NCBI RefSeq assembly: GCF_004010195.1
Contig: NC_057719.1
Location: forward strand, 21,985,385 to 22,049,384
Source of the DNA: Chiloscyllium plagiosum
Lineage: Eukaryota
Direction: 5' to 3'
DNA length: 64,000 nucleotides
Made by a program: the position numbers and the translations under genes. The notes under the pieces were generated by a model, which was not told where the DNA came from, made no database searches, and was given only the letters and a program-made list of their open reading frames with translations. How positions within the stretch are numbered: position 1 is the first letter of the stretch; each line of letters begins with the position of its first letter. Positions 1 to 64,000 of this stretch are shown here, piece by piece.

Positions 1-1683
1 TGGTCTCTCAGTGTGATGCTCTCTCAGTGTGATGGTCTCTCGGTGTGACAGTCTCTCAGTGTGGTGGTCTCTCTGTGTGATGGTCTCTTTGTGTGACGGT
101 TTCCCAGTGTGGTGGTCTCTCAGTGTGAGAAGTCTCAGTATGGTGGTATCTCTTTTGGTATGGTGGTCTCTCAATGTGATGGTCTCTCAGTGTGGCGATC
201 TCTCAAAATGGTGGTCTCTCAGTGTGGCGATCTCTCGGTGTGATGGAGTGATGGTGTGGTGGTCTCTCAGTGTGACGGTGTCTCAGTGTGGTGGAATCTC
301 TTGGTGATGGTCACTCAGTGTGACAGTCTCTCAAAGTGGAGGTCTCTCTGTGTGGTGGCCTCTCAGTGTGATGGTCTCTCAGTGTGATGCTCTCTCAGTG
401 TGATGGTCTCTCGGTGTGACAGTCTCTCAGTGTGGTGGTCTCTCTGTGTGATGGTCTCTTTGTGTGACGGTTTCCCAGTGTGGTGGTCTCTCAGTGTGAG
501 AAGTCTCAGTGTGGTGGTATCTCTTTTGGTATGGTGGTCTCTCAATGTGATGGTCTCTCAGTGTGGCGATCTCTCAAAATGGTGGTCTCTCAGTGTGGCG
601 ATCTCTCGGTGTGATGGAGTGATGGTGTGGTGGTCTCTCAGTGTGACGGTGTCTCAGTGTGGTGGTCTCTCAGTGTGGCAGAGTATCAGTATGATGATCT
701 CTCAGTATGATGGTCTCTCAGTGTGACCATCTCTCAGTGTGGCGGAGTCTCAGTGTGGTGGTCTCTCAGTGTAGCATTCTTTCGGTTTTTGTGTTCTCCT
801 GGTGTGGTGGTCTCTCAGTGTGGCAGAGTCTCAGTGTGATGGTCTCTCCTCTGTGTGGTGGTCTCTCAGTGTGGTGGTCTCTCAGTGTGGCAGTCTCTCT
901 GTGTGACGGCGTCTCAGTGTGACGGAGTCTCAATGTGACGGTCTCTCAGCGTGAGAAGTCTCAGTGTGGTGGTCTCTCAGTGTGGCGGTCTCTCAGTGTG
1001 ACGGTGTCTCAGTGTGGTGGTCTCTCAGTGTGACGGTGTCTCAGTGTGGTGGAATCTCTTGGCGATGGTCACTCAGTGTGACAGTCTCTCAAAGTGGAGG
1101 TCTCTCTGTGTGGTGACCTCTCAGTGTGATGGTCTCTCAGTGTGATGCTCTCTCAGTGTGATGGTCTCTCGGTGTGACAGTCTCTCAGTGTGGTGGTCTC
1201 TCTGTGTGATGGTCTCTTTGTGTGACGGTTTCCCAGTGTGGTGGTCTCTCAGTGTGAGAAGTCTCAGTGTGGTGGTATCTCTTTTGGTATGGTGGTCTCT
1301 CAATGTGATGGTCTCTCAGTGTGGCGATCTCTCGGTGTGATGGAGTGTCAGTGTGGTGGTCTCTCATTGTGACGGTCTTTTAGTGTGATGGTCTCTCAGT
1401 TTGACAGTTTCCCAGTGTGGTGGTCTGTCAGTGTGGTGAAGTCTCAGTGTGGAGGTCTCTCAGTGTAGCGTTCTTCCGGTGTGGTAGTCTCTCAGTGTGG
1501 CGGTCTCTCAGTGTGGTTTTCTCTCAGTGTGAATGTCTCTCATTGTGATGGTCTCTCAATGTGACGGAGTCTCAGTGTGGTGGTCTTTCAGTGTGACAGT
1601 CTCTCAATGTGGCGGTAACTCAGTGTGATGGTCTCTCGGTGTGGTGGTCTCTCAGTGTGGCGGTCTTTTAGTGTGGTGGTCTA
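1..1683. repeat. Minisatellite, 16-bp unit (CAGTGTGRTGGTCTCT) with higher-order block duplications
   Basis: Continuous degenerate 16-mer tandem array. Near-identical long blocks start at about 29, 400 and 1158. The array runs off the window start. Confidence 0.95.
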
Positions 1684-1800
1684 TCCATGTGAGGAAATGT
1701 AGAGGTAGAGGAATGGGTCTGGATGGAATGCTCAGGAGGGTCGGTGTGGACTTGTTGGGCCAAATAGTTTGTTTCCACACTATAGGGAAGCTAATCTATG
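1684..1800 (+). mobile_element. 3' fragment of HE1-type V-SINE (CR1-derived tail)
   Basis: ggagggtcggtgtggacttgttgggcc...gtttccacact matches the tails of the full SINEs at 5716 and 7997. Confidence 0.75.
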
Positions 1801-3087: not shown

Positions 3088-3642
3088 AAACACATTTCAG
3101 CATGAAGGCAAGCAAACACAGAGAATACTGGAGAAACTCAGCATGCCTGTCTCCATCTGTGGAGATAAATAACAGAGTTAACATTTCAAGTCAAGTATGA
3201 ACTTCCCTCTGAATGAAGAAAGGTTTGGAAATTTTGTTTTACTTTTGACAGAGGTGGTGGTGGGTGGGGGAGGGATGAAGAGAACAGATGGTGCAAAGGC
3301 CAAGTGCAAATGACGAATGTTTTTTTTCGTGGTGGTGAAAGAGAAAAAGAGATGGTCTGTTAGGAGCAAATATGCAAACAAGACAAGGCTAGAGTGGAGA
3401 ATGGAAGCAATATGCAGAACAGACATCATGTGGTCAGATTCTGAAGTTGTGTGGTTCAATATTGAGTCCTAGAGGCTGTAAAGTGCTTAAGTGGAAAATT
3501 AAGTGTTGTTCTTTGAGCTTGTGTTGTCCTCACTGGAACATTATAGTACGTCCAGGACAGAAACATTCGAATGAGAGCAAGTTGTTTTATGTTAAAAATC
3601 ACACAACACCAGGTTATAGTCCAATAGGTTTAATTGGAAGCT

Positions 3643-3677
3643 CACTAGCTTTCGGAGTGACGCTCCTTCATCAGGTG
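3643..3677 (-). ncRNA. Minimal hammerhead ribozyme motif (family B, minus arm)
   Basis: Minus strand reads CAC-CUGAUGA-A-GGAG(CGUCA)CUCC-GAAA-GC-UA-GUG, with an intact core. Confidence 0.75.
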
Positions 3678-3682
3678 GTAGT

Positions 3683-3717
3683 CACCTGATGAAGGAGCGA
3701 TGCTCCGAAAGCTAGTG
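3683..3717 (+). ncRNA. Minimal hammerhead ribozyme motif (family B, plus arm)
   Basis: CAC-CUGAUGA-A-GGAGC(GAU)GCUCC-GAAA-GC-UA^GUG. Stem I CAC/GUG, 5-bp stem II, palindromic AGCU stem III, predicted cleavage after 3714. Confidence 0.8.
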
Positions 3718-4069
3718 TGCTTCCAATTAAACCTATTGGACTATAACCTGGTGTTATGTTATTTTTAACTTTGTACACCCCAGTCCAACACCGGCATCTC
3801 CAAATCAAGTTGTTTTATGTAATAGCAAGCAACTGGCAGATCAAGTTCATTCTGATGGACAGAGCGAAGTCTCAAAGCAGTCATCCAGGTCACCCAGGAT
3901 CACAAGGAGGATATTGGAAACATGGAAACATACCCCGTTATCAACCATCCAGTCCACAGCACAAAAAGGTGTGGATTCAAGATCAAATTTGCAGCACTAA
4001 GACGGACAAAAAATTTGATCAGTTAGGTTATGAAACAATGTCAGTTGAGTGGAATGAAGATATTGGTCT

Positions 4070-6528: not shown

Positions 6529-6589
6529 GAGTGTTTCTTTTACTCTCTCAACAGTATCCCCACCCAGAAGCCAGCCTGATCGAAAAGTT

Positions 6590-6819
6590 TCAAGTCAAAA
6601 AGTTTGGCGCTGGAAAAGCACAGCCAGTCAGGCAGCATCCGAGGAGCAGGAGAGTCGAAGTTTCAAGTATAAGCTCTTCCTCAGGAATGACATTCCTGAT
6701 GAAGAGTTTATGCCCAAAATGTCGATTCTCCTGTTCCTCGGATGCTGCCTGACCTGCTGTGCTTTTCCAGCACCACACCCTTCAACTCTGATCTCCAGCA
6801 TCGGCAGTCTTCATTTTCT
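6590..6819. mobile_element. ORF-less inverted-repeat PLE mini-element (family A) with two decayed hammerheads
   Basis: Palindrome centred on tcaggaatg-a-cattcctga (about 6690) with arms of about 90 bp and a right-hand tail. Flanks cctgatcgaaaagtt (6575-6589) and cctgattgaaaagct (6820-6834). Confidence 0.8.
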
Positions 6820-7289
6820 CCTGATTGAAAAGCTTGCCTCCCTGCATCAGAAACTGCAAGTTCCAAGTTCAAAGTGACGAAAACAAAGATTACAACGGAT
6901 GGATATGTATATTAAGTATTGGGACATCAGGGATAATTGAGGGGCAAGTTCTGGGAGGGAGGAGGTCTGAAAGAAATTCAGGGCAGAGATGCAGCTTGGG
7001 TAGGGAGAGGGGCAGGTGTTGGATTATGGAGGGGGCTCAGTTATTAGTTTCTTGATCACCTTGGAGAACAGCTTATTGACTTTAGACAGACCCTGACTAT
7101 TGACAGAGAGGGAAAGTGATGGTGAGACAAGGTTACTGATCATTTGGGGTTGCCCAATCATGGGAAGATGTGGGTTTGTATTGCCATTGGATGGGTTGGT
7201 TACTCCAGAGGCAGGTCCAGTTGTGGGAAGTGAAGGACCTTTGTTTGGGAGGGGCTGAGCAAAGTCACCAAGATGCCTAATTTCCCAGG

Positions 7290-8320: not shown

Positions 8321-8935
8321 CTGGATGAGTGTATGAACAGCAAGGGTTTAGAGGGATGTGGGCGAAGTGCTGGCAAATGGGACTCGATTAGTTTAGGATA
8401 TCTGGTTGGCACAGACTGGAGGGTCTGTTTCCATGCTGTACATCTCTATGACTTGATGGCTCTCTGACTTACCTCTTCCACAAAGATGTCTTGTCCTTAT
8501 CTCCTTTTACCTGTTGGATTTCCTACTCCCCAACTCACCTGGTTGACCAGTACTAAACCTGGAAGAAGAAAAGAAAATGCCTCCTGGCTGCAGTATTTAA
8601 ACAATCAACTCTCTTCCCTGGATCAGATCAGTCACCTGATTCTGCATTAAAAAATAAAGCTGGAACTGTTCAGTATAATCTGGATCGGGTTTGAGACTTT
8701 TACATTTTTGCATTCCACTCAATCCAAACATGAACCCGAACAATTTTCGAGGTTAAAATTCCCCTCAGAACTTCAGATGTCAATTGCCTCAGATTTCAAA
8801 GTGAAATGAACAAAATACATTTAGGAAACAAGAACATATCGGTAAGAGGTCTTAAAAATAAAGCAACAAACAACAAAGACATAGTTAATGTGAAAAATTA
8901 TCAGGTCAGGTTTCAGACAGTTATTTTCATATGCT

Positions 8936-9102
8936 CAGGATTAGAGTGGTGCTGGAAAAGCACAGCAGGTCAGGCAGCATCCGAGGAGCAGGAAAATCAA
9001 CATTTCAGGCAGGAGCCCTTCATCAGGAATGCCTGCTGTGCATTTCCAGTACCACTACAATCTTGACTCTGATCTTCAGCATCTGCAGTCCTCACTTTCA
9101 CC
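8936..9102. mobile_element. ORF-less inverted-repeat PLE mini-element (family A), one arm internally deleted
   Basis: Minus arm 8940-9030 carries a hammerhead motif, and the plus arm restarts at cctgctgtgc. Flanks ttattttcatatgct (8921-8935) and ttattttcacaggct (9103-9117). Confidence 0.75.
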
Positions 9103-9684
9103 TTATTTTCACAGGCTGCTTTATTGTTAATGATACCTGTTGTAATGAAGAAAATAAATTAATCTTCAATAGTACATAGGGTAAGATTTAGACAGGTCGA
9201 GACACAGGTTTGCAGCTGGCTGGCAGTCATCGGGCATGATGTAGTGTAGAAGACCCTGCTACTGAATGATCAAAGGTCAGAAAGGAAAGTAAATGAAACA
9301 TAGAAACACAGAAAATAGGGGCTTGATAGTATCTGCTTGATTTCAATGCCATAGATGCTCAAAGTCAATTTAAAAATGGGAATATTGAAAATGCACAAAA
9401 GGTAGTCAGCCTCCAAGTCAAAAAATGATACGTTAATAGCTTGTAAAGACAGTGTCTTTTTATTTTTGTGCTTTCGAAATTGTGGACTCAACTAAGAAGA
9501 GCTGTTTTAAAACCAGTGTTTTAAAGACTTGCTGCATGTTTTGAAATGCAAGTAACCTAACATTCATGGCATGCATTGTGTAAACAGCTATTCGCACAAA
9601 TAGTTGAAGTGATTGTAAACAAATAGGAGCTGAGGGGTTCTGTGCACAGGGGCAACTGACTGGCAGCAAGACATTGAATTGAAA

Positions 9685-11466
9685 AGTGTGGTGCTGGAAA
9701 AGCTCAGCAGATCGAGCAGCATCTGAGGAGCAGGAGAATCGATATTTTGGGCATAAGCCCTTCATCAGGAATGTGGGGGAGGGGTGGGGGGGGGGTGGGG
9801 GGAGGAGGAGGCTGAGNNNNNNNNNNNNNNNNNNNNNNNNNNNNNNNNNNNNNNNNNNNNNNNNNNNNNNNNNNNNNNNNNNNNNNNNNNNNNNNNNNNN
9901 NNNNNNNNNNNNNNNNNNNNNNNNNNNNNNNNNNNNNNNNNNNNNNNNNNNNNNNNNNNNNNNNNNNNNNNNNNNNNNNNNNNNNNNNNNNNNNNNNNNN
10001 NNNNNNNNNNNNNNNNNNNNNNNNNNNNNNNNNNNNNNNNNNNNNNNNNNNNNNNNNNNNNNNNNNNNNNNNNNNNNNNNNNNNNNNNNNNNNNNNNNNN
10101 NNNNNNNNNNNNNNNNNNNNNNNNNNNNNNNNNNNNNNNNNNNNNNNNNNNNNNNNNNNNNNNNNNNNNNNNNNNNNNNNNNNNNNNNNNNNNNNNNNNN
10201 NNNNNNNNNNNNNNNNNNNNNNNNNNNNNNNNNNNNNNNNNNNNNNNNNNNNNNNNNNNNNNNNNNNNNNNNNNNNNNNNNNNNNNNNNNNNNNNNNNNN
10301 NNNNNNNNNNNNNNNNNNNNNNNNNNNNNNNNAATAGTGGAAGATGATGCGCTGTATCTGGAGATTGGTGGGGTGCACTGTCAGGACTGGGGAGATTCTA
10401 TCCTTGTTGTGGATGGAGGGGTGGGGTTCAAGAATGGGAAGTGGAGGAGATGGGCTGGAGGGCATCAGTGACCACATAGGAGGAGAAATTGTGGTCCTTG
10501 AAATAGGAGGCCATCTGGGATGTTTTGGAGTGGAATTGCTCTTCTTGGGACCAGATACGGTGGAGGCAGAGGATTTGGGAGTGAGGGATAGTGTTTTTAC
10601 AGGAGGGGTGTTGGGAGGAATTGTAGTCCAGGTAGCTATGGAAGTTAGTGGGTTTGATGTAGATGTCTGTGTTGTGTCAGTTGTCAGAAATGGAGACGGA
10701 GAGGTCCAGGAAGGGGAGAGAGGTGTCTGAGGTGGTCCAGGTGAATGTGAGGTCAGGGTGGAAGGTGTTTGTGAAGTTGATGACCTGTTCAACCTCCTCG
10801 TGGGAGCATGAGGTGGCGCTGATACAGTCATCGATGTTGGGAAGGAAAAGGTGGGGAATGGTCCCAGTGTAACTGCAGAAGATGGACTATTCCACATGTT
10901 TGAAAAAGAGGCAGGGAGAGCTGGGGCCCATGTGAGTGCCTATGGCTACCCCTTTGGTCTGAAGAAAGTTGGAGGATTTGAAGGAGAAGTTGTTGAGGGT
11001 GAGGACTAGTTCACCTAACCAAATGAGTGTGTTTATGGAAGGATACTGGTTGGGTTGGCAGGAGAGGAAAAACAGAGAGCTTGGAGGCCTTCACCATGGC
11101 AGGTGGATGTATACAGGGACTGGATGTCCATGGTGAAGATGAGGTGTTGGGTGCTGGGAAAACAAAAGTAATGGGGGAGGTGGAGGCCATGGGTGGTGTC
11201 CTGAATGTATGTGGGGAGTTCCTGGACCTGGGGGCATAGGATGATGTCAAGATATGAGGAGATAAGTTTGGGGGGCAGGAGCAGGTGGAGGAGATGGGTA
11301 AACTGGAGCAGTCAGGTTTGTGAATTTTGGGTAAGAGGTAGTACTGGGCGGTAGGGGGGGGTTTAGAGACTATGAGGGTTAGAGATTGTAGCTGGGAGAT
11401 CCCCTGAGGTGATGAGGTTGTGAATGGTCTGGGAGATGATGGTTTGGTGATGGGAGGTGAGGTCAT
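9685..11466 (-). mobile_element. Penelope-like element, 5'-truncated, spanning a gap
   Basis: Terminal repeat with hammerhead motif at 9685-9772. Minus frames give YYLLPKIHKPD and RT motifs homologous to the 62265 ORF, with frameshifts. Confidence 0.85.
9817..10332. other. Assembly gap
   Basis: Run of N. Confidence 1.
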
Positions 11467-18850: not shown

Positions 18851-19906
18851 CACCAGCAAGAAATTTGTCTTGCCATTCAACACTTGGTTGGAAAATAGGA
18901 TATTTTCCTCTCCATGTTGAGAAATTCTTCACTGCCAATCTTATGAGATTAATCCGTTTTTTTTCATTAATGCCCATGTCATTCATTTTCCCAGAAGATT
19001 CTGCTCAAAATCTTGAATAAATATAACTGTAAGCTGGTCATCAATATTGATTTAATTAATGTGGATCTTGGCTTTGCAGTAGCATGGGTGGATACTTGAA
19101 ACATTCAACCTTTTTGGAATAAATGTTTAACTTGCTGCTTGGGTTAAGGAACTGGCTTAACTAAAGAAAGTACCCTCTGTTACCACCTTCAGAAATTAAC
19201 CCTATACTGCCATATGTACTATCCTAATTGTAGCTAGAAGCAACATAGAGCGTGGTACACATTGAATATAACTGCTGCCAATGCTAGTGTTCATTTATGA
19301 AAATAATTCATGAATACAATATGTGGAGGATAACAGTCCTGAATAAACTATGTTGATAAGAGAGTGTTCTATCTCTTTGGACAGCTTAGTCTCTGGACTA
19401 TCTCACCAGATGTTAAACTGCTTGGTTACATTTCTTACTTTGGAAGAAAGCATTGAGAAAACATTCTCTCAACTGAGATAACACACTTTCATCAATGTTA
19501 AAAAAAAAGTATTCACAGGTGTTTTTCCTCTGAAAAATGGCACAGTCTGTTTCTGATTAAAAAGTTTTTCTTTGCTGCAAGCTGACTTGATCATACTTTA
19601 ATGTCAAGATTTTGTAATCTGTCACTGATGCAGCATCTTAGGGAAAATTCAACATCTGCAAATACATCACTTTTGGCATAATTAAGTTCCTAGTTTTGTT
19701 CAACTGTTCCCTATTGCATCAATGTTAAATTGGGATAATAACTGATTGATATTATGGGGACTTGTGAGTACATTATAATGGAAAACCTATTCTATTGTTT
19801 TGCACTCAGTCTCCAGTCTGCTTCACTGCTGGGACACAGCAGCATCTGGGAGGATCATATTTTGGTAAAATCACCGATTTATTTTAACTGTCTTTTCTGC
19901 AACATG

Positions 19907-20085
19907 ATTTGGAGATGCCGGTGTTGGACTGGGGTGGACAAAGTTAAAAATCACACAACATCAGGTTATAGGCCAACAGGTTTAATTGGAAGCACCAGCT
20001 TTCGGAGCAACACGCAGCACTCCGAAAGCTAGTGTGCTTCCAATTAAACCTGTTGGACTATAACCTGGTGTTGTGTGATTTTTAA
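19907..20085. mobile_element. Second family-B inverted-repeat mini-element, hammerhead cores deleted at the hairpin centre
   Basis: Same arms and tail as 3593-3805 in the opposite orientation. Flanks cttttctgcaacatg (19892-19906) and cttttctgcaatatg (20086-20100). Confidence 0.85.
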
Positions 20086-20129
20086 CTTTTCTGCAATATG
20101 TATTCAACACAGCAGATAGTGAGGAAGGG

Positions 20130-20720: not shown

Positions 20721-21072
20721 TCATTAAGTCCATGCTGGATCTCCAAAAGAACATTTGAAATAGTCCCATTGCCCCGCCCTTTCCCCATTGCTGTGAAATA
20801 TTTTTTAAATTATGCTATTATGCAGCACAGAAGATGCCCTCTGTCCATTGATTCTGCACCAACAAAAGCTACTGTTTAATCTACAGTAGCCCCACTTTTC
20901 AGTGTTTGGCCCATATTATTGAGTGTTACAACATTTAAAGTGCTCATCAGCATACTTTTAAAGTTGTGGGGCTTCCTGCCTCAATTACCCTCCCATGCAG
21001 TCCATTCCAGATTTCCATCACGCTCTGGGTGAAAATGTTAATCCACCCCTTCACCTTAAAACTTAACCTTTG

Positions 21073-21895
21073 TTAAGATCAGAGTGGTGCTGGAAAAGCA
21101 CAGCAGGTCAGGCAGCATCTAAGGAGCAGGGAAGTCGATGTTGTGGGCAAAAGCCCTTCATCAGGAATGAGGTTGGAAGCCTCAGGCGTGGAGAGATAAA
21201 TCAGAGGGTGGTGGGCTGTGGCGAAGGTAGCTGAGAGTGCAATAAGTGGATGGAGGTGTGGGTAAAGGTGATAGGTCGGGGAGGAGGGTGGAGCGGATAG
21301 GTGGGAAGGAAGATTGACAGGTGGGACAGGTCATGAGGATGGTGCTGAGCTGGAAGGTTGGAACTGGAATAAGGTGGGTGAAGGGGAAATGGGGAAATTG
21401 GTGAAGTCCATATTGATACCATGGGGTTGGAGGGGCCTGAGGCGGAAGTTGAGGCGTTCTTCCTCCAGGCATCGGGTGTCAAAGGTGTAGCGACGGAGGC
21501 GGCCCAGGACCTGCATATACACAGCAGAGTGGGAGGGGAAGTTGAAATGTTCAGCCACGGGGCAGTGGGATTGATTGGTGCGGGTGTCACAGAGATGTTC
21601 TCTGAAGTGTTCTGGGAGAAGGCGTCCAGTCTCTCCAACACAGAAGAGACAGCATCCGGAGCAACTATTACAATAAGTGACATTGGTGGATGTGCAAGTT
21701 GTGTGTTACTTACAATTTGAGTGTTGAGTCGGCCATCATTGATGGAGATGGAGAGGTCCAGGAAGGGGAGGGACGTGCCCGCAATGGTCCAGGTGAATTT
21801 AAGTTTGGGGTGGAATGTGTTGGTGAAGTTGATGAACTGTTCAACCTCCTTGTGGGAGCTTGAGGTGCCGCCAATGCAGTCATCAATGTAGCAGG
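21073..21895 (-). mobile_element. PLE 3' fragment, inverted partner of the long plus copy
   Basis: Terminal repeat with hammerhead motif at 21078-21168. Minus frames give YIDDCIG, LPFLDLSI and AEHFN...EEERLNFRL..LQPHGINMDF, with an internal deletion. Confidence 0.9.
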
Positions 21896-24445
21896 GGAAA
21901 AAGTCCTTACTCTCAGCTCCAGGCCTATACCAGATCCTAGCTCCCAGCCCTGGTGAGTTTTCACTATCCCTCCAGACCTTCCTCTCACTGAGGATGAACA
22001 ATCAGTCCTCAGCAACGATCTTACCTTCATCCCCCTCTATCCATGCATCAATGAATTAAATGTGTGTCATAACGTCGCACACGTCTTCTACTAGCTCAGC
22101 CTCCGAGCTTACTTTTCTCATCAAGACTCTCACCCAACCTCCACAGACTTCTTCTCCTGCCTCCAACACATTCTATCCACTGGGACACCCCAGTGCTGGC
22201 CTATTACCCACCCTTGACCTCTTTATTTCCAACTGCCACTGAGACATTAACCTGTCTACACTCCTTTCCCCTCTCCAAGCTCTCACCCTCACAATGTGCA
22301 GCCCTCCACTCCATCTGCACTAACCCCAACCTCTCCATCAAACCAGTGGATAAAGGGGGTGCAGTGGTAGTCTGGTGCACTGACCTCTACACCGCTGAAG
22401 CCAGATGCCAACTCAAAGACACCTCCTCCTACCGCCCCCTCGACCATGACCCCACCCCCCCCATCACCAAACCATCATCGCCCAGACCATACACAATGTC
22501 ATCACCTTAGGGGATCTCCCACCCACAGCTTCCAACCTCGGGAGCCACGTATTGCCCGATTCTACCTCCTACCCAAAATCCACAAGCCTGACTACCCTAG
22601 CCGACCTGTTGTCTCAGCCTGCTCCTGCCCCACCAAACTCATCTCCACCTACCTTGATACTGTCCTATCCCCTTAGTCCAGGAGCTCCCCACATACATTC
22701 GGGACACCACCCATACCATCCACCTACCCAAGACTTCCGTTTCCCCAGCCCCTCACACCTCATCTTCACATGGACATCCAATCCCTCTACACTTCCATCT
22801 GCCATGACCAGTGCTTCCAAGCCCTTCACTTCCTCCTCTCCCGATGTCCCCAACAGTACCCTTCCACTGACACTCTCATTCATTTGGCTGAACTGGTCCT
22901 CACCCTCAACAATTTCTCCTTTGAATCATCCCACTTCCTTCAGACCAAAGGGGTAGCCATGGACACTTGCCTGTGCCCCAGCTATGCCTGTCTCTTCCAG
23001 AGTTACAGCGGCACCACTCCCCATCTCTTCCTCCGCTACATTAATGACTGCATCGGTGCCACCCAGTGCTCCCGCGAGGAGGTTGAGCGGTTCATCAACT
23101 CCACCAACACATTCCATCCCGACCTTAACTTCACCTGGACCATCTTGGTCCACCTCCCTCCCCTCCCTGGACCTCACCATCTCCATCAACGATGACCGAC
23201 TCAACACTGGCATTTTTTACAAACCCACCGTCTCACACAGTTACCTGGATTATACCTCCTCCCACCCTACCTCCTGAAAAAATACTATCCCATATACCCA
23301 ATTCCTCCACCTCCACCTCCTCTGCTCCCAGGAGAACCAGTTCCACCACAGAACACACCAGATGGCCTTCTCTAAAGACCGCAATTTCCTCTTCTACATG
23401 GTTGAAGATGCCCTCCAATGCATCTCATCCACATCCCGCACCTCCGTCCTTGAACCCCACCCCTCCAACCACAACAAAGACAGAGCTTGCCTGGTCCTCA
23501 CCTTCCACTTCACCAACCTCTGCATAAATCGCATCATCCACTGACATTTCCGCCACCTATAAACAGACCCCACCACCAGGGATATATTTCCCTCCCCAAC
23601 CCTATATGCTTTCCGCAAAGACCGTTCCCTCTGTGACTACCTGGTCAGGTCCACGCCTCCCAACAACCCACCCTCCCCTCCTGCCATTTTCCCCTGCCAC
23701 CGCGGGAATTGCAAAGCCTGCGCCCACACCTCCTCCCTCACCTCCATCCAAGTCCCCAAAGGGGCCTTCCACATCCATCAAAGTTTCACCTGCACATCCA
23801 CTAATATCATTTATTGTATCCGTTGCTCCCGATGCAGTCTCCTCTACATTAGGGAGACCGGATGCCTTCTCGCGGAGCACTTTAGAGAACATCTCCGGGA
23901 CATCCGCACCAATCAACCACACCGCCCCATGGCCGAACATTTCAACTCCCCCTCTGATTCTGCAGAGGACATGCAGGTCCTGGGCCTCCTCCACCGCCTT
24001 TCCCTTACCACTCGGAGGAAGAACGCCTCATCTTCCGCCTCAGGGCCCCTCCAACCCCATGGTATCAATATGGACTTCACCAGTTTCCTCATTTCCCCTT
24101 CCCCCACCTTACCCCAGATTTTACCTTCCAGCTTAGCATCCTCATGACGCATCCCACCTGTCAATCTTCCTTCCCACCTATCCACCTCACCCTCCTCTCC
24201 AACCTATCACCTTCACCCACACCTCCATCCACCTATTGCACTCTCAGCTAACTTACCCCTCAGCCCCACCTACCCTCCTCCCATTTATCTCTCCACCCCC
24301 GAGGCTCCCAGCTTCATTCCTGATAAATGGCTTTCATCTGAAACATCGATTTTCTTGCTCCTCGGATGCATCCTGATATGCTGTGCTTTTCCAGCATCAC
24401 TCTAATCTTGACTCTAATCTCCAGCATCTGCAGTACACATCTCTG
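21896..24445 (+). mobile_element. Near full-length Penelope-like element (RT, Cys-rich linker, GIY-YIG), frameshifted
   Basis: IKPVDKGGAVVVW, FYLLPKIHKP, MDIQSLYTSI, GVAM, LRYINDC, C..C linker, IIYCIRCSRCSLLYIRET. Ends in a terminal repeat at 24315-24445. Confidence 0.92.
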
Positions 24446-52782: not shown

Positions 52783-53137
52783 TGTGGCAGAAATCATGTT
52801 ATAGCCAAGACAGGTAAGAAACATTTGTGTTCCACAGATAATAATCTAAACTCTTCAATTGCGTTAAAACTAATTCGTGTTGAAGAAACCCATCCTATAG
52901 CAGAACCAACTGTATATGGATTTCAAATGTTTCCTCCAGAGATAAGAGAATTGTCATCTTGACAAAACAAAGTGCTGACAAAATATCAGGAAAGTTTTGG
53001 AAATGTCCTTCAAGTAGACATTAATTTTTCCCAAATTCAACCCAAAATTATTCTTAGATCCCAGGTGTTCACTTCTGTTCTTTTTTCCGGCTGGTAATTT
53101 CTAATCCCAAAATTGTACTATATAGAAATGATTCAGC

Positions 53138-53742
53138 TCCCTTCCACATCCGTCAGAAACTCAACTGCACCTCTACCAATGTCATCTACTGCATCCATTG
53201 CACCCAGTGTGGGCTCCTCTCCATCGGGGAGACAGGAAACCTTCTTGCGGATCGTTTCAGAGAACATCTTTGGGGCACCCGCACCCACCAACCCCACCAC
53301 CCCGTGGTTGAACACTTCAACTCCCCCTTCCACTCTGTCAAGGACATGCAGGTCCTGGCCCCCTCCACCACCAAACCATTACCACCCAATGCCTGGAGGA
53401 GGAATGCTTCATATTCTGCCTTGGGACCCTGCAAGCACACGGGATCAATGTGGATTTCAACAGCTTCCCTTCCCCCACATTATCCCAGTCCCAAGCCTCC
53501 AACTCAGCACCACCCTCCGAACCTGTCCTTCACTCCCCTCTCTGACTTATCACCTTCTCCCTTATCTTCATCCACTTATCGCTTTCCCAGCTACTTTCCC
53601 CAAACCCTAGCCCCCTCTCATTTATCTCTCAGCCCCAACCCATAAGCCTCTTTCCTGATGAAGGGCTTATGCCTGAAATATCGATTCTCCTACTCCTCTG
53701 ATGCTGCCTGACCTGCTGTTTCCAGCACCATACTCTCGACAT
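53138..53742 (+). mobile_element. PLE 3' fragment (GIY-YIG and terminal repeat)
   Basis: NVIYCIHCTQCGLLSIGETG.LLADRFREHL. Terminal repeat ttcctgatgaagggcttatgcctgaaatatcg at about 53652. Confidence 0.9.
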
Positions 53743-55360: not shown

Positions 55361-55753
55361 CCATAGGACTTACAGCACCCTGCTCACAATGTAGGATGCA
55401 GATTGCACCTTATCTGCTATGTCCAAGGAACCATGCAGGGCAGCTCCAGACTGACAGTGCTTGTCCAGGTGCACAATGGAATGTTAAATATGCCACCAAA
55501 TAACAATGAATATAAGAGTTTAGTAAGTTACAGTGAGAAAATTGGCCGGGTTTTATAGTGAGAGTCACTCCACCAACTCACGATAATATACACTGAACCA
55601 AAAATGTGCAAGATTTTACCCTTTGTGTTCTATTGGACTCTGAACCAAGGTCTGACCTCATCCTCATTGTTGCTCAAACTGTCTTCATAATATCTGTTGA
55701 AACTTTATTGCTGGAACAGCACAGCAGGTCAGGCAGCATCCAGGGAACAGGAG

Positions 55754-55789
55754 ATTCGACGTTTCGGGCACAGGCCCTTCTTCAGGAAT
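55754..55789 (-). ncRNA. Minimal hammerhead ribozyme motif, intact
   Basis: Minus strand reads AUUC-CUGAAGA-A-GGGC(CUGU)GCCC-GAAA-CG-UC^GAAU. Confidence 0.8.
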
Positions 55790-55940
55790 GAGCAGAGAGT
55801 GTTCAGCAGGAGAAGATAAAAGGTAGGGAGGAGGGACATGGAGGAGGGGCGTTGGAAATGTGATAGGTGGAAAGAGGTAAAGGTGAAGGTGATAGGTCGG
55901 AGTAGGGTGGAGGCGGAGAGGGCAAGAAGAAGACTGCAGG

Positions 55941-56633
55941 NNNNNNNNNNNNNNNNNNNNNNNNNNNNNNNNNNNNNNNNNNNNNNNNNNNNNNNNNNNN
56001 NNNNNNNNNNNNNNNNNNNNNNNNNNNNNNNNNNNNNNNNNNNNNNNNNNNNNNNNNNNNNNNNNNNNNNNNNNNNNNNNNNNNNNNNNNNNNNNNNNNN
56101 NNNNNNNNNNNNNNNNNNNNNNNNNNNNNNNNNNNNNNNNNNNNNNNNNNNNNNNNNNNNNNNNNNNNNNNNNNNNNNNNNNNNNNNNNNNNNNNNNNNN
56201 NNNNNNNNNNNNNNNNNNNNNNNNNNNNNNNNNNNNNNNNNNNNNNNNNNNNNNNNNNNNNNNNNNNNNNNNNNNNNNNNNNNNNNNNNNNNNNNNNNNN
56301 NNNNNNNNNNNNNNNNNNNNNNNNNNNNNNNNNNNNNNNNNNNNNNNNNNNNNNNNNNNNNNNNNNNNNNNNNNNNNNNNNNNNNNNNNNNNNNNNNNNN
56401 NNNNNNNNNNNNNNNNNNNNNNNNNNNNNNNNNNNNNNNNNNNNNNNNNNNNNNNNNNNNNNNNNNNNNNNNNNNNNNNNNNNNNNNNNNNNNNNNNNNN
56501 NNNNNNNNNNNNNNNNNNNNNNNNNNNNNNNNNNNNNNNNNNNNNNNNNNNNNNNNNNNNNNNNNNNNNNNNNNNNNNNNNNNNNNNNNNNNNNNNNNNN
56601 NNNNNNNNNNNNNNNNNNNNNNNNNNNNNNNNN
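55941..56633. other. Assembly gap
   Basis: Run of N at the centre of an inverted PLE pair. Confidence 1.
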
Positions 56634-57183
56634 TCTCCAAGTCCCCAAAGGAAACTTCCATATCCGCCACAGATTCACCTGCCCCTCCACCCACATTATC
56701 TACTGCATCCGCTGCAGCCGGTGTGGCCTCCTCTATATTGGGGAGACAGGCCGCCTACTTGCGGAGCGATTCAGAGAGCACCTCTGGGCCAACCCAATCA
56801 CCCTGTAGCACAGCATTTCAACTCCCCCTCCCACTCCACCGAGGATATGCAGGTCATTGGACTCATCCACCGCCAAACCACAACAACGCGACGGTCGGAG
56901 GAGGAGCGTCTTATCTTCCGACTGGGGACCCTCCAACCGCAGGGGATGAACTTGGACTTCACCAGTTTCTTTCTCCCCCCTCCCCCCACCTTGTCTCCGC
57001 CGGGTCCCCCCAGCCCGGCGCCGCCTTCCTGACCTGCAGTCTTCTTGTTGACCTCTCCGCCTCCACCCTACTCCGACCTATCACCCTCACCTTGACCTCT
57101 TTCCACCTATCACATTTCCAACTCCCCTCCTCCAAGTCCCTCCTCCCTACCTTTTATCTTCTCCTGCTGAACACTCTCTGCTC

Positions 57184-57219
57184 ATTCCTGAAGAAGGGCC
57201 TGTGCCCGAAACGTCGAAT
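57184..57219 (+). ncRNA. Minimal hammerhead ribozyme motif, intact
   Basis: AUUC-CUGAAGA-A-GGGC(CUGU)GCCC-GAAA-CG-UC^GAAU. Stem I AUUC/GAAU, predicted cleavage after 57215. Confidence 0.8.
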
Positions 57220-57382
57220 CTCCTGTTCCCTGGATGCTGCCTGACCTGCTGTGCTGTTCCAGCAATAAAGTTTCAACTTCATAATATCTGTCTATACCCT
57301 TATTCTAATTGCTTCCAAAACCCCCATCCATTCCATATTACCATCAAATCTGACCACTCCAATGATCTGCAATTATTAAATA

Positions 57383-60572: not shown

Positions 60573-62180
60573 ATGATGGGTGCATTTGAATAAAGGAGCT
60601 ACGATATCCGCTGAAAAAGTGGAGAAGGAAATTTGAAATGACAGTTGAACATTTAATTTGCTCCCTAATTAAATTTCCAAACAAATGGGTGATTTTAGTG
60701 AGTTTGTGCCTTGGTGGGTATACCATTTTAAAATGGGAGACAGGATGATAAAAATGAGGAACATCAGGAATGAGAACCCCAGAATTAGGTGCTATCTATT
60801 ATTTTTAAAGTTTGGAAAGTCTTTCAAACCCCACAAAATTCCTGGCCGTTATCTCCCATTCGTAAATGCTGCCTTTCCATGGGGAGCTGTATGAATGATT
60901 TAAAGAAAATATAAAAGCAAAATGCTGCAGATGCTGGAAATCTGAAACAAACACAGGGAATGGTTGAGAAACTCAGCAGGTCAGTCAGCCTCTCTGGAAA
61001 CAGAAGGAGTTTCTCCAGCATTCTCAAGTTCAAATAATTTAAACCCTTTTTGAGGCAACTGTAGGTAGCTTGTCTGTACCAAGAATCCCATTGTTTAATA
61101 TTATCCCATTTCCAACACTGACTTTATTAAACAAAGGCTACCCTTTGAATGGTAACCACTTTACGTCTGTTTGCCACTCTTCCTAAGAGTGTTCCCTTCT
61201 TTTTTCAAATTCAACTTTTGGGAAATAGTCTCAGTGGCTGAGTTAGCACTTATTGTCTGTCCCCAGTTGTCCTTGACAAGGTGGTCATGAGCCACCTTCT
61301 TGAACTGTAGCAGCCCTTTTGCTGTGGGAAGATCCATAATGTCATCAGTCAGAGAATTCCAAGATTTTGACACAGCAATACTGAAAGGACAGTGATATGG
61401 CAGGATTGTGAGTGTTTGGTTAGAATTCACATGTGGTAGTGTTATAGATGATAGTGGTTGTGGGTTTTGCTAGGTGGTGTGTAAGGATCTTTGATGATTT
61501 TCTGTGGTACATCTCATAGATTTTACACACTGATGTGACAGACAGTCAGTGGCGGAGGGAGATGTTTGTGGATGTGTTGTCAATCAAACAGGCTTGGATG
61601 GTGTCAAACTTCATAAGTATTGTTGAAGCTGCATTCATTCAGACAAGTGATGACTATTCCATCAAACTCCTCTGTTGACACTTCCAGATGTTGAACAGGC
61701 TTTGTGGTGTCAGGTGGTCAGTTATTCATTGTAATATTTCAAGCCTCTAACCTGTTGTTTTAGCCACTTATGTGGTATTTATGTGGTTAGCTCAGTTCAG
61801 TTTCTGGTCAATGGTAACTTCCAGGATGTTGTAAATTGGGGATTCGGTGAAGTTAACACTATTAAGTCAAGAGGTGATGATTAGATTGTCTCTTATTGGA
61901 GATGGTCATAGCTTGGCATTTGTGTAGTGTGAATGTTACTTGCCACTTGTCAGCTCAAGCCTAGGTGCTGTTCAGACCTTGTTCCATTTAGATATGGTCT
62001 GCTTTAGTATCTGAGGAGGCATGAACGGTGCTGAACATTCTGCAAACATTGGCAAACATCATCAGTTTTGATCTTATGCTGGAGGGAAGATCATCAATGA
62101 AGATGGATGAGCCCAGGACATTACCCTGATGAACTCCTGCATAAATGTGCCAGAGCTAAGATGACTGATCTCCAACAACC

Positions 62181-63177
62181 CTCCTTCGACTGACTGAACT
62201 GGTCCTCACCCTGAACAACTTTTCTTTCCAATCCTCCCACTTTCTCCAAACAAAAGGAGTAGCCATGGGCACCCGCATGGGCCCCAGCTATGCCTGCCTC
62301 TTCGTAGGGTATGTGGAACAATCCATCTTCCGCAACTACACTGGCCCCACCCCCCATCTTTTCCTTCGCTACATTGATGACTGTATCGGCGCTACCTCGT
62401 GCTCCCACGAGGAGGTTGAACAGTTCATCCACTACACCAACACCTTCCACCCCGACCTCAAATTCACCTGGACAGTCTCGGACTCCTCCCTCCCCTTCCT
62501 AGACCTTTCTGTTTCTATCTCAGGCGACCGAATCAACACGGACATCTACTACAAACCAACCGACTCCCACAGCTACCTAGACTACACCTCCTCCCATCCT
62601 GCCCCCTGTAAAAACGCCATCCCATTCTCCCAATTCCTACGTCTCCGCCGCATCTGCTCCCAGGAGGACCAGTTCAAAATACGTACAACACAGATGGCCT
62701 CCTTCTTCAAGGACCGCAATTTCCCCCCCGACGTGGTCGACGGTGCCCTCCACCGCATCTCCTCCACTTCCCGCCCCCCCGCCCTTGAGCCCCGCCCCTC
62801 CAACCGCCACCAGGACAGAACCCCACTGGTCCTCACCTACCACCCCACCAATCTCCATGTACAGCGCATCATCCGCCGTCACTTCCGCCACCTCCAAACA
62901 GACCCCAGCACCAAGGATATATTTCCCTCCCCTCCCCTATCAGCTGTCCGTAGAGACCACTCCCTCCGCGACTCCCTTGTCAGATCCACACCCCCCACCG
63001 ACCCAACCACCACTCCCGGCACCTTCCCTTGCAACCGCAGGAGGTGCAACACTTGCGCCCACACCTCCCCCCTCACTTCTCTCCAAGGCCCCAAGGGAAA
63101 CTTCCATATCCGCCACAGATTCACCTGCACCTCCACCCACATCATCTACTGCATCCGCTGCAGCCGGTGTGGCCTCC
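62181..63177 (+). mobile_element. Young PLE fragment with uninterrupted reading frame (RT C-half, thumb, Cys-rich linker, start of GIY-YIG)
   Basis: Frame is open from 62181 and includes ORF 62265: GVAMGTRMGPSYA, FLRYIDDC, LPFLDL, YYKPT, CNRRRCNTC, IIYCIRCSRCG. It is truncated just before the YIG motif. Confidence 0.95.
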
Positions 63178-63390
63178 ATGTTTGGATCATTGGAATCTCT
63201 GCTGGGGTAGAATTGACGTGCATAAGAAGGATGGATTGTACCTGAATTGGAAGGTGTCTAATATCCAGGCAGGGAGATTTGCTAGTGCTACTCAGGAGGC
63301 ATTAAACCAGTGAGGGAGTGGGGGGTAAACCTAAAGAGATAGTGAGAGAAGAGGTATGTCTGAGGCTGGTACAGTTGAGAAGTTAGACAG
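63178..63390 (+). mobile_element. CR1 ORF1 (SGNH esterase-like) C-terminus and inter-ORF fragment
   Basis: LDHWNLCWGRIDVHKKDGLYLNWKVSNIQAGRFASATQEALN* resembles the DGLHLN block that ends CR1 ORF1. Confidence 0.75.
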
Positions 63391-63392
63391 TC

Positions 63393-63428
63393 ATTCCTGA
63401 AGAAGGGCATGTGCCCGAAACGTCGAAT
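63393..63428 (+). ncRNA. Minimal hammerhead ribozyme motif, intact, in PLE terminal repeat 63391-63488
   Basis: AUUC-CUGAAGA-A-GGGC(AUGU)GCCC-GAAA-CG-UC^GAAU, predicted cleavage after 63424. Confidence 0.8.
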
Positions 63429-63865
63429 CTTCTGTTCCCTAGATGCTGCCTGACCTGCTGTGCTGTTCCAGCAATAAAGTTTCAGCTTTGATCTCCAACA
63501 ACCACATATAAACCATGAAATTAGATATTCATTCACCAACTCAAATTTCTAAGTGCAATGTGATGCCCCAGCTATGACTTCAACCAGTGAAGAGCCTTTT
63601 CCTTGGTTCCCATTGAGCCCAGTTTTAGTGGACACATGGTCAAATGTGATCTTTTCATCAAAGGCTGTCAACTTCATCTCACCTCTGGAATTCAACTCTT
63701 TTGTCTGTGTTTGAACCAAAGCTGTGATGATGTTAGGAGCTGGGCATCACTGAGCAGGTTATTGCTGAGCAGCTGCTGCTTGATAGCACTGTTGTTGACA
63801 CCTTCCATCACATTACTGATGATCCAGAGTAAACTGATAATGATTAGCTGAGTTGGATTGGGCTT

Positions 63866-64000
63866 GATTTGGAGATACCGGTTTTGGACTGGGGTGTACA
63901 AAGTTACAAATCACACAACACCAGGTTATAGTCCAACAGGTTTAATTGGCAGTACTAGCTTTCGGAGCGCCAGTCCTTTATCAGGTGGTTGTGAGTACAC
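63866..64000 (-). mobile_element. Family-B PLE terminal repeat (cut by the window end)
   Basis: Same tail and arm as 19907-20000, with a decayed hammerhead at about 63954-63988. Confidence 0.8.

Follow-up and report, generated by a model that had tools for sequence, protein, structure and literature searches.

Insertions of EN+ Penelope-like elements (PLEs) are the closest described relatives of the locus considered here; in these, an inverted 5'-truncated copy and a 30-40-bp tail on one side only are described as standard (Craig et al. 2021, PMC8557442). Rotifer Penelope insertions carry an inverted pseudo-LTR (pLTR), a 31-bp tail, and target site duplications (TSDs) of 8-10 bp (Arkhipova et al. 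2013, PMC3846280), while dual minimal hammerheads on opposite strands have been credited to truncated PLEs (Cervera and de la Pena 2014, PMC4209133)—in vitro, metazoan minimal hammerheads are reported in the same work to show no cleavage as monomers and low cleavage as dimers. For the Anolis Poseidon element PAc, the tail has been explained as spanning the distance from one RT start site to another; in vitro, the Anolis protein nicks both strands and extends them, and the two internal start sites bound the tail (Frangieh et al. 2024, PMC11167929).

We describe a fold-back at positions 3578-3820 of a 64,000-nt stretch of Chiloscyllium plagiosum DNA (NC_057719.1, positions 21,985,385 to 22,049,384 of the forward strand), which as a whole we call the window. 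The fold-back is real but ordinary, with an architecture that has been known since 2013-2014. Very probably, it arose long ago as a short insertion from an abundant Penelope-like family, of which it keeps the hammerhead-bearing end, the pseudo-LTR with its tail; the mirror half was likely assembled at insertion and not copied from a hairpin master. This reading starts from features that are observed directly—the anatomy, the flanking repeat, the abundance of the family, the differing centers of sister copies, and the decay of the arms. Among openly accessible papers, we found no description of the family.

The two arms are 87 nt each (3591-3677 and 3683-3769), are complementary at 81/87 positions (93%), and have 5 nt between them; together with the tail they form an insert of 213 nt between the flanking repeats, without an ORF. 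The repeats themselves, at 3578-3592 and 3806-3820 on the plus strand, are exact (15/15 identical). Within positions 1800-64000 of the window, two exact 15-mers recur at a spacing of 150-300 nt, one of which is this repeat. The start of the window (1-1693) is taken up by a diverged tandem repeat array, with self-matches of 74-83% at many offsets.

Read as parts of a Penelope-like element, the arms are unequal. The sense pseudo-LTR arm (3683-3769, plus strand) begins 3 nt upstream of the hammerhead core and continues into a one-sided tail (3770-3807, plus strand) that measures 36 nt to the flanking repeat (3770-3805), or 38 nt counting a shared CA, within the 30-40-nt one-end-only range of EN+ insertions. 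The inverted pseudo-LTR arm (3591-3682, minus strand) has no tail, reaches to 8 nt upstream of the core, and takes in the 5-nt "spacer" at 3678-3682. This spacer, GTAGT, is the inverted arm running on and not a separate loop, because its reverse complement precedes the arm in longer copies of the family, namely the copy at 63863-64000 and the loose ends found in sequencing runs. On the minus strand it reads ACTAC before CACC, where the 63863-64000 copy has ACAAC, and the loose ends before 3682/3683 finish in CCACTA or CCACAAC in all four runs mapped. The flanking repeat overlaps the element as well: the first 2 nt of the right copy (CA) are the family's own sequence at 3806-3807, to which 2109 contigs of one DNA run (X1) match through 3807, and the last 2 nt of the left copy (GT) fall within the inverted arm. 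With 2 nt of overlap at each end, the true target duplication is 11-15 nt.

The preliminary description of this locus had reported two arms of about 87 bp with a 36-bp one-sided tail, and in this it was correct. It had also reported a 5-nt separation and a perfect 15-bp TSD; the 5 nt and the exact repeat are both there, but the first is no separate spacer and the second includes element sequence at either end. The features of a PLE insertion occur together—an inverted 5'-truncated copy adjoining the pLTR, a tail at one end, a TSD, and a minimal type I hammerhead motif in the pLTR—and it is on this anatomy that the family would be counted as Penelope-like.

Each arm opens with a 3-bp stem I strand; next come CUGAUGA with one additional A, then stem II, then GAAA, GC, and UA, and last the partner strand. 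The putative minimal hammerhead of the sense arm (3683-3717, plus strand) has a 3-bp stem I, the extra A after the core, a 5-bp stem II, and a loopless palindromic helix III, with a predicted cut at 3714/3715; in that of the inverted arm (3643-3677, minus strand), stem II is cut down to 4 bp and the predicted cut lies at 3646/3645. The suggested Penelope derivation of these motifs, with their palindromic loopless helix III, agrees with the anatomy and with features given for metazoan PLE hammerheads (PMC4209133). An Rfam scan of the window returned no family at its gathering threshold, and Hammerhead_HH10 scored 15 bits (E 4.3, below threshold). The claim of an intact hammerhead on each strand can therefore be kept for the conserved letters of a candidate minimal hammerhead only, which are present on both strands but fall below every Rfam threshold. 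MicroRNA matches with low E-values were rejected; they lie below their own thresholds and reflect only the long hairpin.

That hairpin has a predicted minimum free energy of -144.2 kcal/mol, equalled by 0 of 200 shuffled sequences. Owing to the head-to-head layout, the antisense arm is transcribed ahead of the ribozyme on either strand; folding predictions put the cost of a hammerhead fold over the full hairpin at 50 (plus strand) and 48 (minus strand) kcal/mol, and the probability of the stem II closing pair within the full hairpin at about 1e-12. With the antisense arm made first and a cost of 48-50 kcal/mol, the ribozymes are predicted to be locked off in the 87-bp duplex of any read-through RNA, with no second state, and the built-in switch that had been proposed is not supported. 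In a cofold prediction of two arm copies the active dimer was not the minimum-energy form, a result that is uninformative for a 4-bp helix.

The family occupies three loci in the window (5 BLAST hits). A second fold-back (19892-20100, minus strand) has the same tail and a 15-nt flanking repeat that is 14/15 identical; its center lies inside stem II, and it has no CUGAUGA core. The third copy (63863-64000, minus strand) consists of arm and tail and runs on upstream of the core until the window end cuts it. A further family, here called family B, has 17 hits in the window and no real similarity to the first, and shows the same anatomy twice: at 6575-6832 (plus strand), two hammerhead-like arms stand head to head with a tail and a 13-nt flanking repeat with 1 mismatch, and at 8921-9113 (plus strand), a fold-back with an asymmetric center has an 11-nt flanking repeat, again with 1 mismatch. 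Elsewhere, at 55696-57277, inverted family-B ends (245 nt, 97.6% identical) surround an assembly gap of 693 N.

The centers of these fold-backs bear on how the mirror half arose. Relative to the core, the four in the window have centers at about -8/-3 (the 3578-3820 fold-back, with its inverted arm running to -8 and its sense arm starting from -3), +11/+11, -6/-5, and -5/+57; all four differ, as do both of the two within the same family. The preliminary description had suggested a retrozyme-like unit with fixed boundaries and had named junctions that differ in every copy as the pattern that would speak against it; such differing junctions are what the four window fold-backs show, in a small sample, and copies in the sequencing runs pass at 3682/3683 into upstream element sequence.

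Coding sequence can be associated with family B: ORFs with YIDD and CX4CxxC motifs precede its hammerhead arms at a distance of 147-168 nt, and they also hold a motif that we take to be GIY-YIG-like. In an atlas comparison with one family-B ORF, the top 3 of 30 hits were clusters in which 12-20% of members carry RVT_1 and GIY-YIG. Pfam searches on 6 ORFs gave one sub-threshold RVT_1 match (a family-B ORF, E 0.006) and one weak zinc-finger match, a 134-aa stop-to-stop frame over the tail had no Pfam match, and a PDB sequence search with a family-B ORF gave 0 hits. Beside the three window copies of the 3578-3820 family, no RT or endonuclease ORF was seen; the locus codes for no protein, in line with the earlier view of it as ORF-less and moved in trans. 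The window holds decayed copies of a second Penelope-like family (62169-63500, 22446-24434, 21072-21900, 10343-11466, and 53058-53736), with pieces of RT and endonuclease-like ORFs and a CX4CxxC linker; they are Neptune-type by the description in PMC8557442, and several finish in a hammerhead-like arm.

Abundance was assessed with a reference of one arm, the tail, and the right flank (3678-3977), mapped at 82% likeness on 4 of 24 public runs: three DNA runs, taken as contigs, and one raw poly(A) single-cell RNA run (X21), of which about 2 in 100 reads were read. Contigs matched in the three DNA runs numbered 34,787, 44,299, and 36,736, where run depth is not a copy number. In run X1, 2109 and 424 contigs depart from the reference after 3807 and 3806, respectively, into varied flanks, so that copies sharing this tail end must number at least in the thousands. 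Metagenome contigs and viral contigs each gave 0 matches to a 20-nt family pattern. Past 3807, many copies run on with TGACT-like letters; a few contigs return from the tail end to 3682 or to about 3730-3738, forming partial tandems in head-to-tail order. Joints between the tail end and opposite-strand position 3755 occur in 5 and 8 contigs.

At the other end, 435 contigs of run X1 depart at 3682/3683 into upstream element sequence and not into the center of the fold-back. With a single-arm reference, the 3578-3820 center is detectable only as a strand-changing joint, and contigs break in repeats; among the 15 of 59 joints listed (1-8 contigs each), that center was absent. Opposite-strand joints from 3683/3684 to 3717 were not counted as centers, as they may be alignment breaks at a 2-nt indel. 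In all four runs, bin 3678-3687 has at most half the depth of the next bin, which by rough inference leaves little room for copies matching 3678-3682. The public runs thus give, indirectly, no sign that the 3578-3820 center has been amplified, with space left for a small subfamily that carries it.

The arm includes a poly(A) signal region (3726-3766, plus strand): the hexamer at 3726-3731 is ATTAAA, or AATAAA in other copies, family transcripts receive their poly(A) at 3743-3746, and a GU/U-rich stretch lies downstream. Of 2438 mapped X21 reads, only 9 reach at least 99% identity; the reads come from other family copies. Among them, 345 carry poly(A) behind 3743 and 417 behind 3746, and another 238, of the short form, are polyadenylated as well. 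A functional poly(A) site therefore lies within the arm, upstream of the tail, and RNAs ending there cannot template tailed insertions. Taken together, about 1000 of the 2438 reads are polyadenylated at 3743-3746, 12-15 nt past A(A/T)TAAA and before the GU-rich stretch; these could be element mRNAs or host transcripts borrowing the element's signal.

In the same run, depth is level across 3714/3715, so that family poly(A) RNA spans the predicted cut site uncut. RNA ends at this position had been proposed as a sign of cleavage; no pile-up of starts or ends appears there in X21, a poly(A) library of a kind that captures cleaved products poorly, and what the run shows is uncleaved RNA, not an absence of cleavage. 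Zero X21 reads fall on the 3' flank (3818-3977), for about 2 in 100 reads of one sample. The suggested dsRNA source is possible to the extent that it is for any fold-back, but gains nothing from that flank. A>G and T>C places in the family hairpins (3683-3807) are more numerous in X21 RNA (22 and 30) than in DNA (12-14 and 12-17). Editing is possible, but we did not take this excess as a sign of it, since most of the remaining change types are raised as well and the DNA compared is unmatched.

The age of the insertion can be approached through its decay. A single CpG, decayed on opposite strands, accounts for two of the six arm differences, and five are single-arm departures from the family majority; none restores pairing, and one arm has lost one stem II pair. 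These look like neutral decay, and the locus has likely decayed neutrally since insertion. In two related organisms, B and C, contigs carry the same flank joined to 12 and 19 tail nucleotides, respectively, with 10/184 and 4/115 differences—close to the 6/87 between the arms—although both sets fall below our 31-letter bridging rule. This common joint suggests that the insertion is shared with both organisms and likely older than their split. No empty target site was seen in the contigs of the runs mapped. An exact TSD does not imply youth, since a perfect 15-mer is expected with probability 0.34 at the divergence of the arms.

A plausible course of events can be proposed from these features and from the biochemistry of the Anolis protein. 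A Penelope protein made elsewhere and acting in trans would place one nick in each target strand, at a distance of 11-15 nt. Reverse transcription would be primed from one of them at the far internal start, the tail end at about 3807, and from the other at a near start at about 3769, each primer end matching the element by 2 nt. Both cDNAs would run for a short distance, to a point just upstream of the hammerhead, where the template RNA likely has its 5' end, and their head-to-head joining would give an inverted arm without a tail, a sense arm with one, and the target duplication. Target-element matches of 2-4 nt are found at both outer ends of both family fold-backs, which fits priming from two nicks; end joining would also leave such matches, and in the Anolis system, unlike here, reverse transcription begins at a site non-homologous to the cut DNA (PMC11167929). 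We extend this course of events tentatively, and on balance doubtfully, to Penelope fold-backs at large: these would be two separately primed reverse transcriptions, one per nicked strand and sometimes on two RNA molecules. Each would begin 85-125 nt from the RNA 5' end, and 19892-20100 would be a fossil of such an event. In that copy, a 2-nt indel that is commonly polymorphic in the family separates the arms, which also appear to differ in loop-II haplotype. This discordance suits two templates, but the loop difference adjoins the junction and can be read as a small duplication, making it weak evidence. Both arm differences in this region (19990-20040) are common family polymorphisms, and an insertion from two templates is a possibility there.

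Assembly at insertion could also proceed by self-priming, in which a single cDNA (or an antisense template) would turn back on itself and serve as its own primer, as put forward for rotifer Penelope palindromes (PMC3846280); being a sub-case of assembly at insertion, it shares that part of the confidence placed in the best explanation, and by itself it carries appreciable weight while falling short of an even chance. A minor variant, A at position 3735, which accounts for no more than about 11% of family depth, occurs in both arms of the 3578-3820 fold-back, as a single cDNA would produce, although it fits one template or later arm-to-arm conversion as well as two primings. The center of 19892-20100 within the self-complementary stem II would suit a fold-back primer too, but the indel and haplotype differences between the arms of that copy do not, the 3578-3820 center offers a hairpin-forming microhomology of only 0-1 nt, and the 2-4-nt matches at both outer ends would fit priming from the target.

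A different origin would be a non-autonomous hairpin subfamily, the whole 213-nt unit being transcribed and re-inserted by Penelope proteins. Clean boundaries and TSD, a tail end common to thousands of copies, the ability of PLE cis sequences to mobilize other DNA in trans (PMC3846280), and the existence of non-autonomous PLE derivatives (bioRxiv 10.64898/2026.07.22.740005) would all accommodate it; we nonetheless consider it improbable, given the unlike centers of both family fold-backs, the halved depth (or less) of bin 3678-3687 in 4/4 runs (a rough inference), a template region that would lie in the 87-bp duplex, and a poly(A) site upstream of the tail. Adoption by the host, as an RNA switch or dsRNA source at 3578-3820, could draw on the stable 87-bp duplex and on likely retention in three related organisms, but it is very improbable indeed: the antisense arm comes first on both strands, with the predicted closing-pair probability and folding cost given above; decay has gone uncompensated to the point of losing a stem II pair in one arm; X21 has no reads on 3818-3977 and 9/2438 reads at 99% identity or above (about 2 in 100 read, one sample); and metazoan minimal hammerheads cleave in vitro not at all as monomers and little as dimers (PMC4209133). 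An insertion whose mirror half was built as it integrated is the reading we prefer over both.

As one of at least thousands of stubs, the single locus matters little. The family, however, is a large natural data set on the making of Penelope inverted repeats and tails and on RNA start and end points—if two separate primings should prove true, the thousands of hairpins in this genome would settle the origin of Penelope inversions and tails.

Compared with the insertions described in PMC3846280 and PMC8557442, the fold-back shares the head-to-head inverted truncated copy, the one-sided tail of 30-40 nt, and the short TSD; in contrast to them, it consists of two arms and a tail only, 213 nt without an ORF, and its TSD (11-15 nt) exceeds the 8-10 nt of the rotifer examples (PMC3846280). 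With the metazoan PLE hammerheads of PMC4209133 it has in common the conserved core, the extra base between positions 9 and 10.1, the G10.1-C11.1 pair, and the palindromic 15.2-16.2, as well as thousands of dispersed copies and opposite-strand pairs; however, its cores lie 11 nt apart as against about 100-700 bp in the dual motifs reported there, and its stems I (3 bp) and II (4-5 bp) are shorter than in the Schistosoma examples. Animal non-LTR retrozymes are likewise non-coding, with a type I hammerhead and kinship to PLE pLTRs, but they are same-strand tandems that release circular monomers (Cervera and de la Pena 2020, PMC7229834; Li et al. bioRxiv 10.64898/2026.07.22.740005). We rejected a retrozyme identity for the fold-back, whose arms are inverted with one motif per strand and no same-strand tandem, because two opposite-strand motifs cannot excise a monomer. 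Unlike Anolis Poseidon PAc (PMC11167929), the family is known from sequence only and has target-element matches of 2-4 nt at both ends; like PAc, as described in the same source, it has a hammerhead motif in the pLTR, a tail that two start points would bound, and RNA-seq without ends at the cut site.
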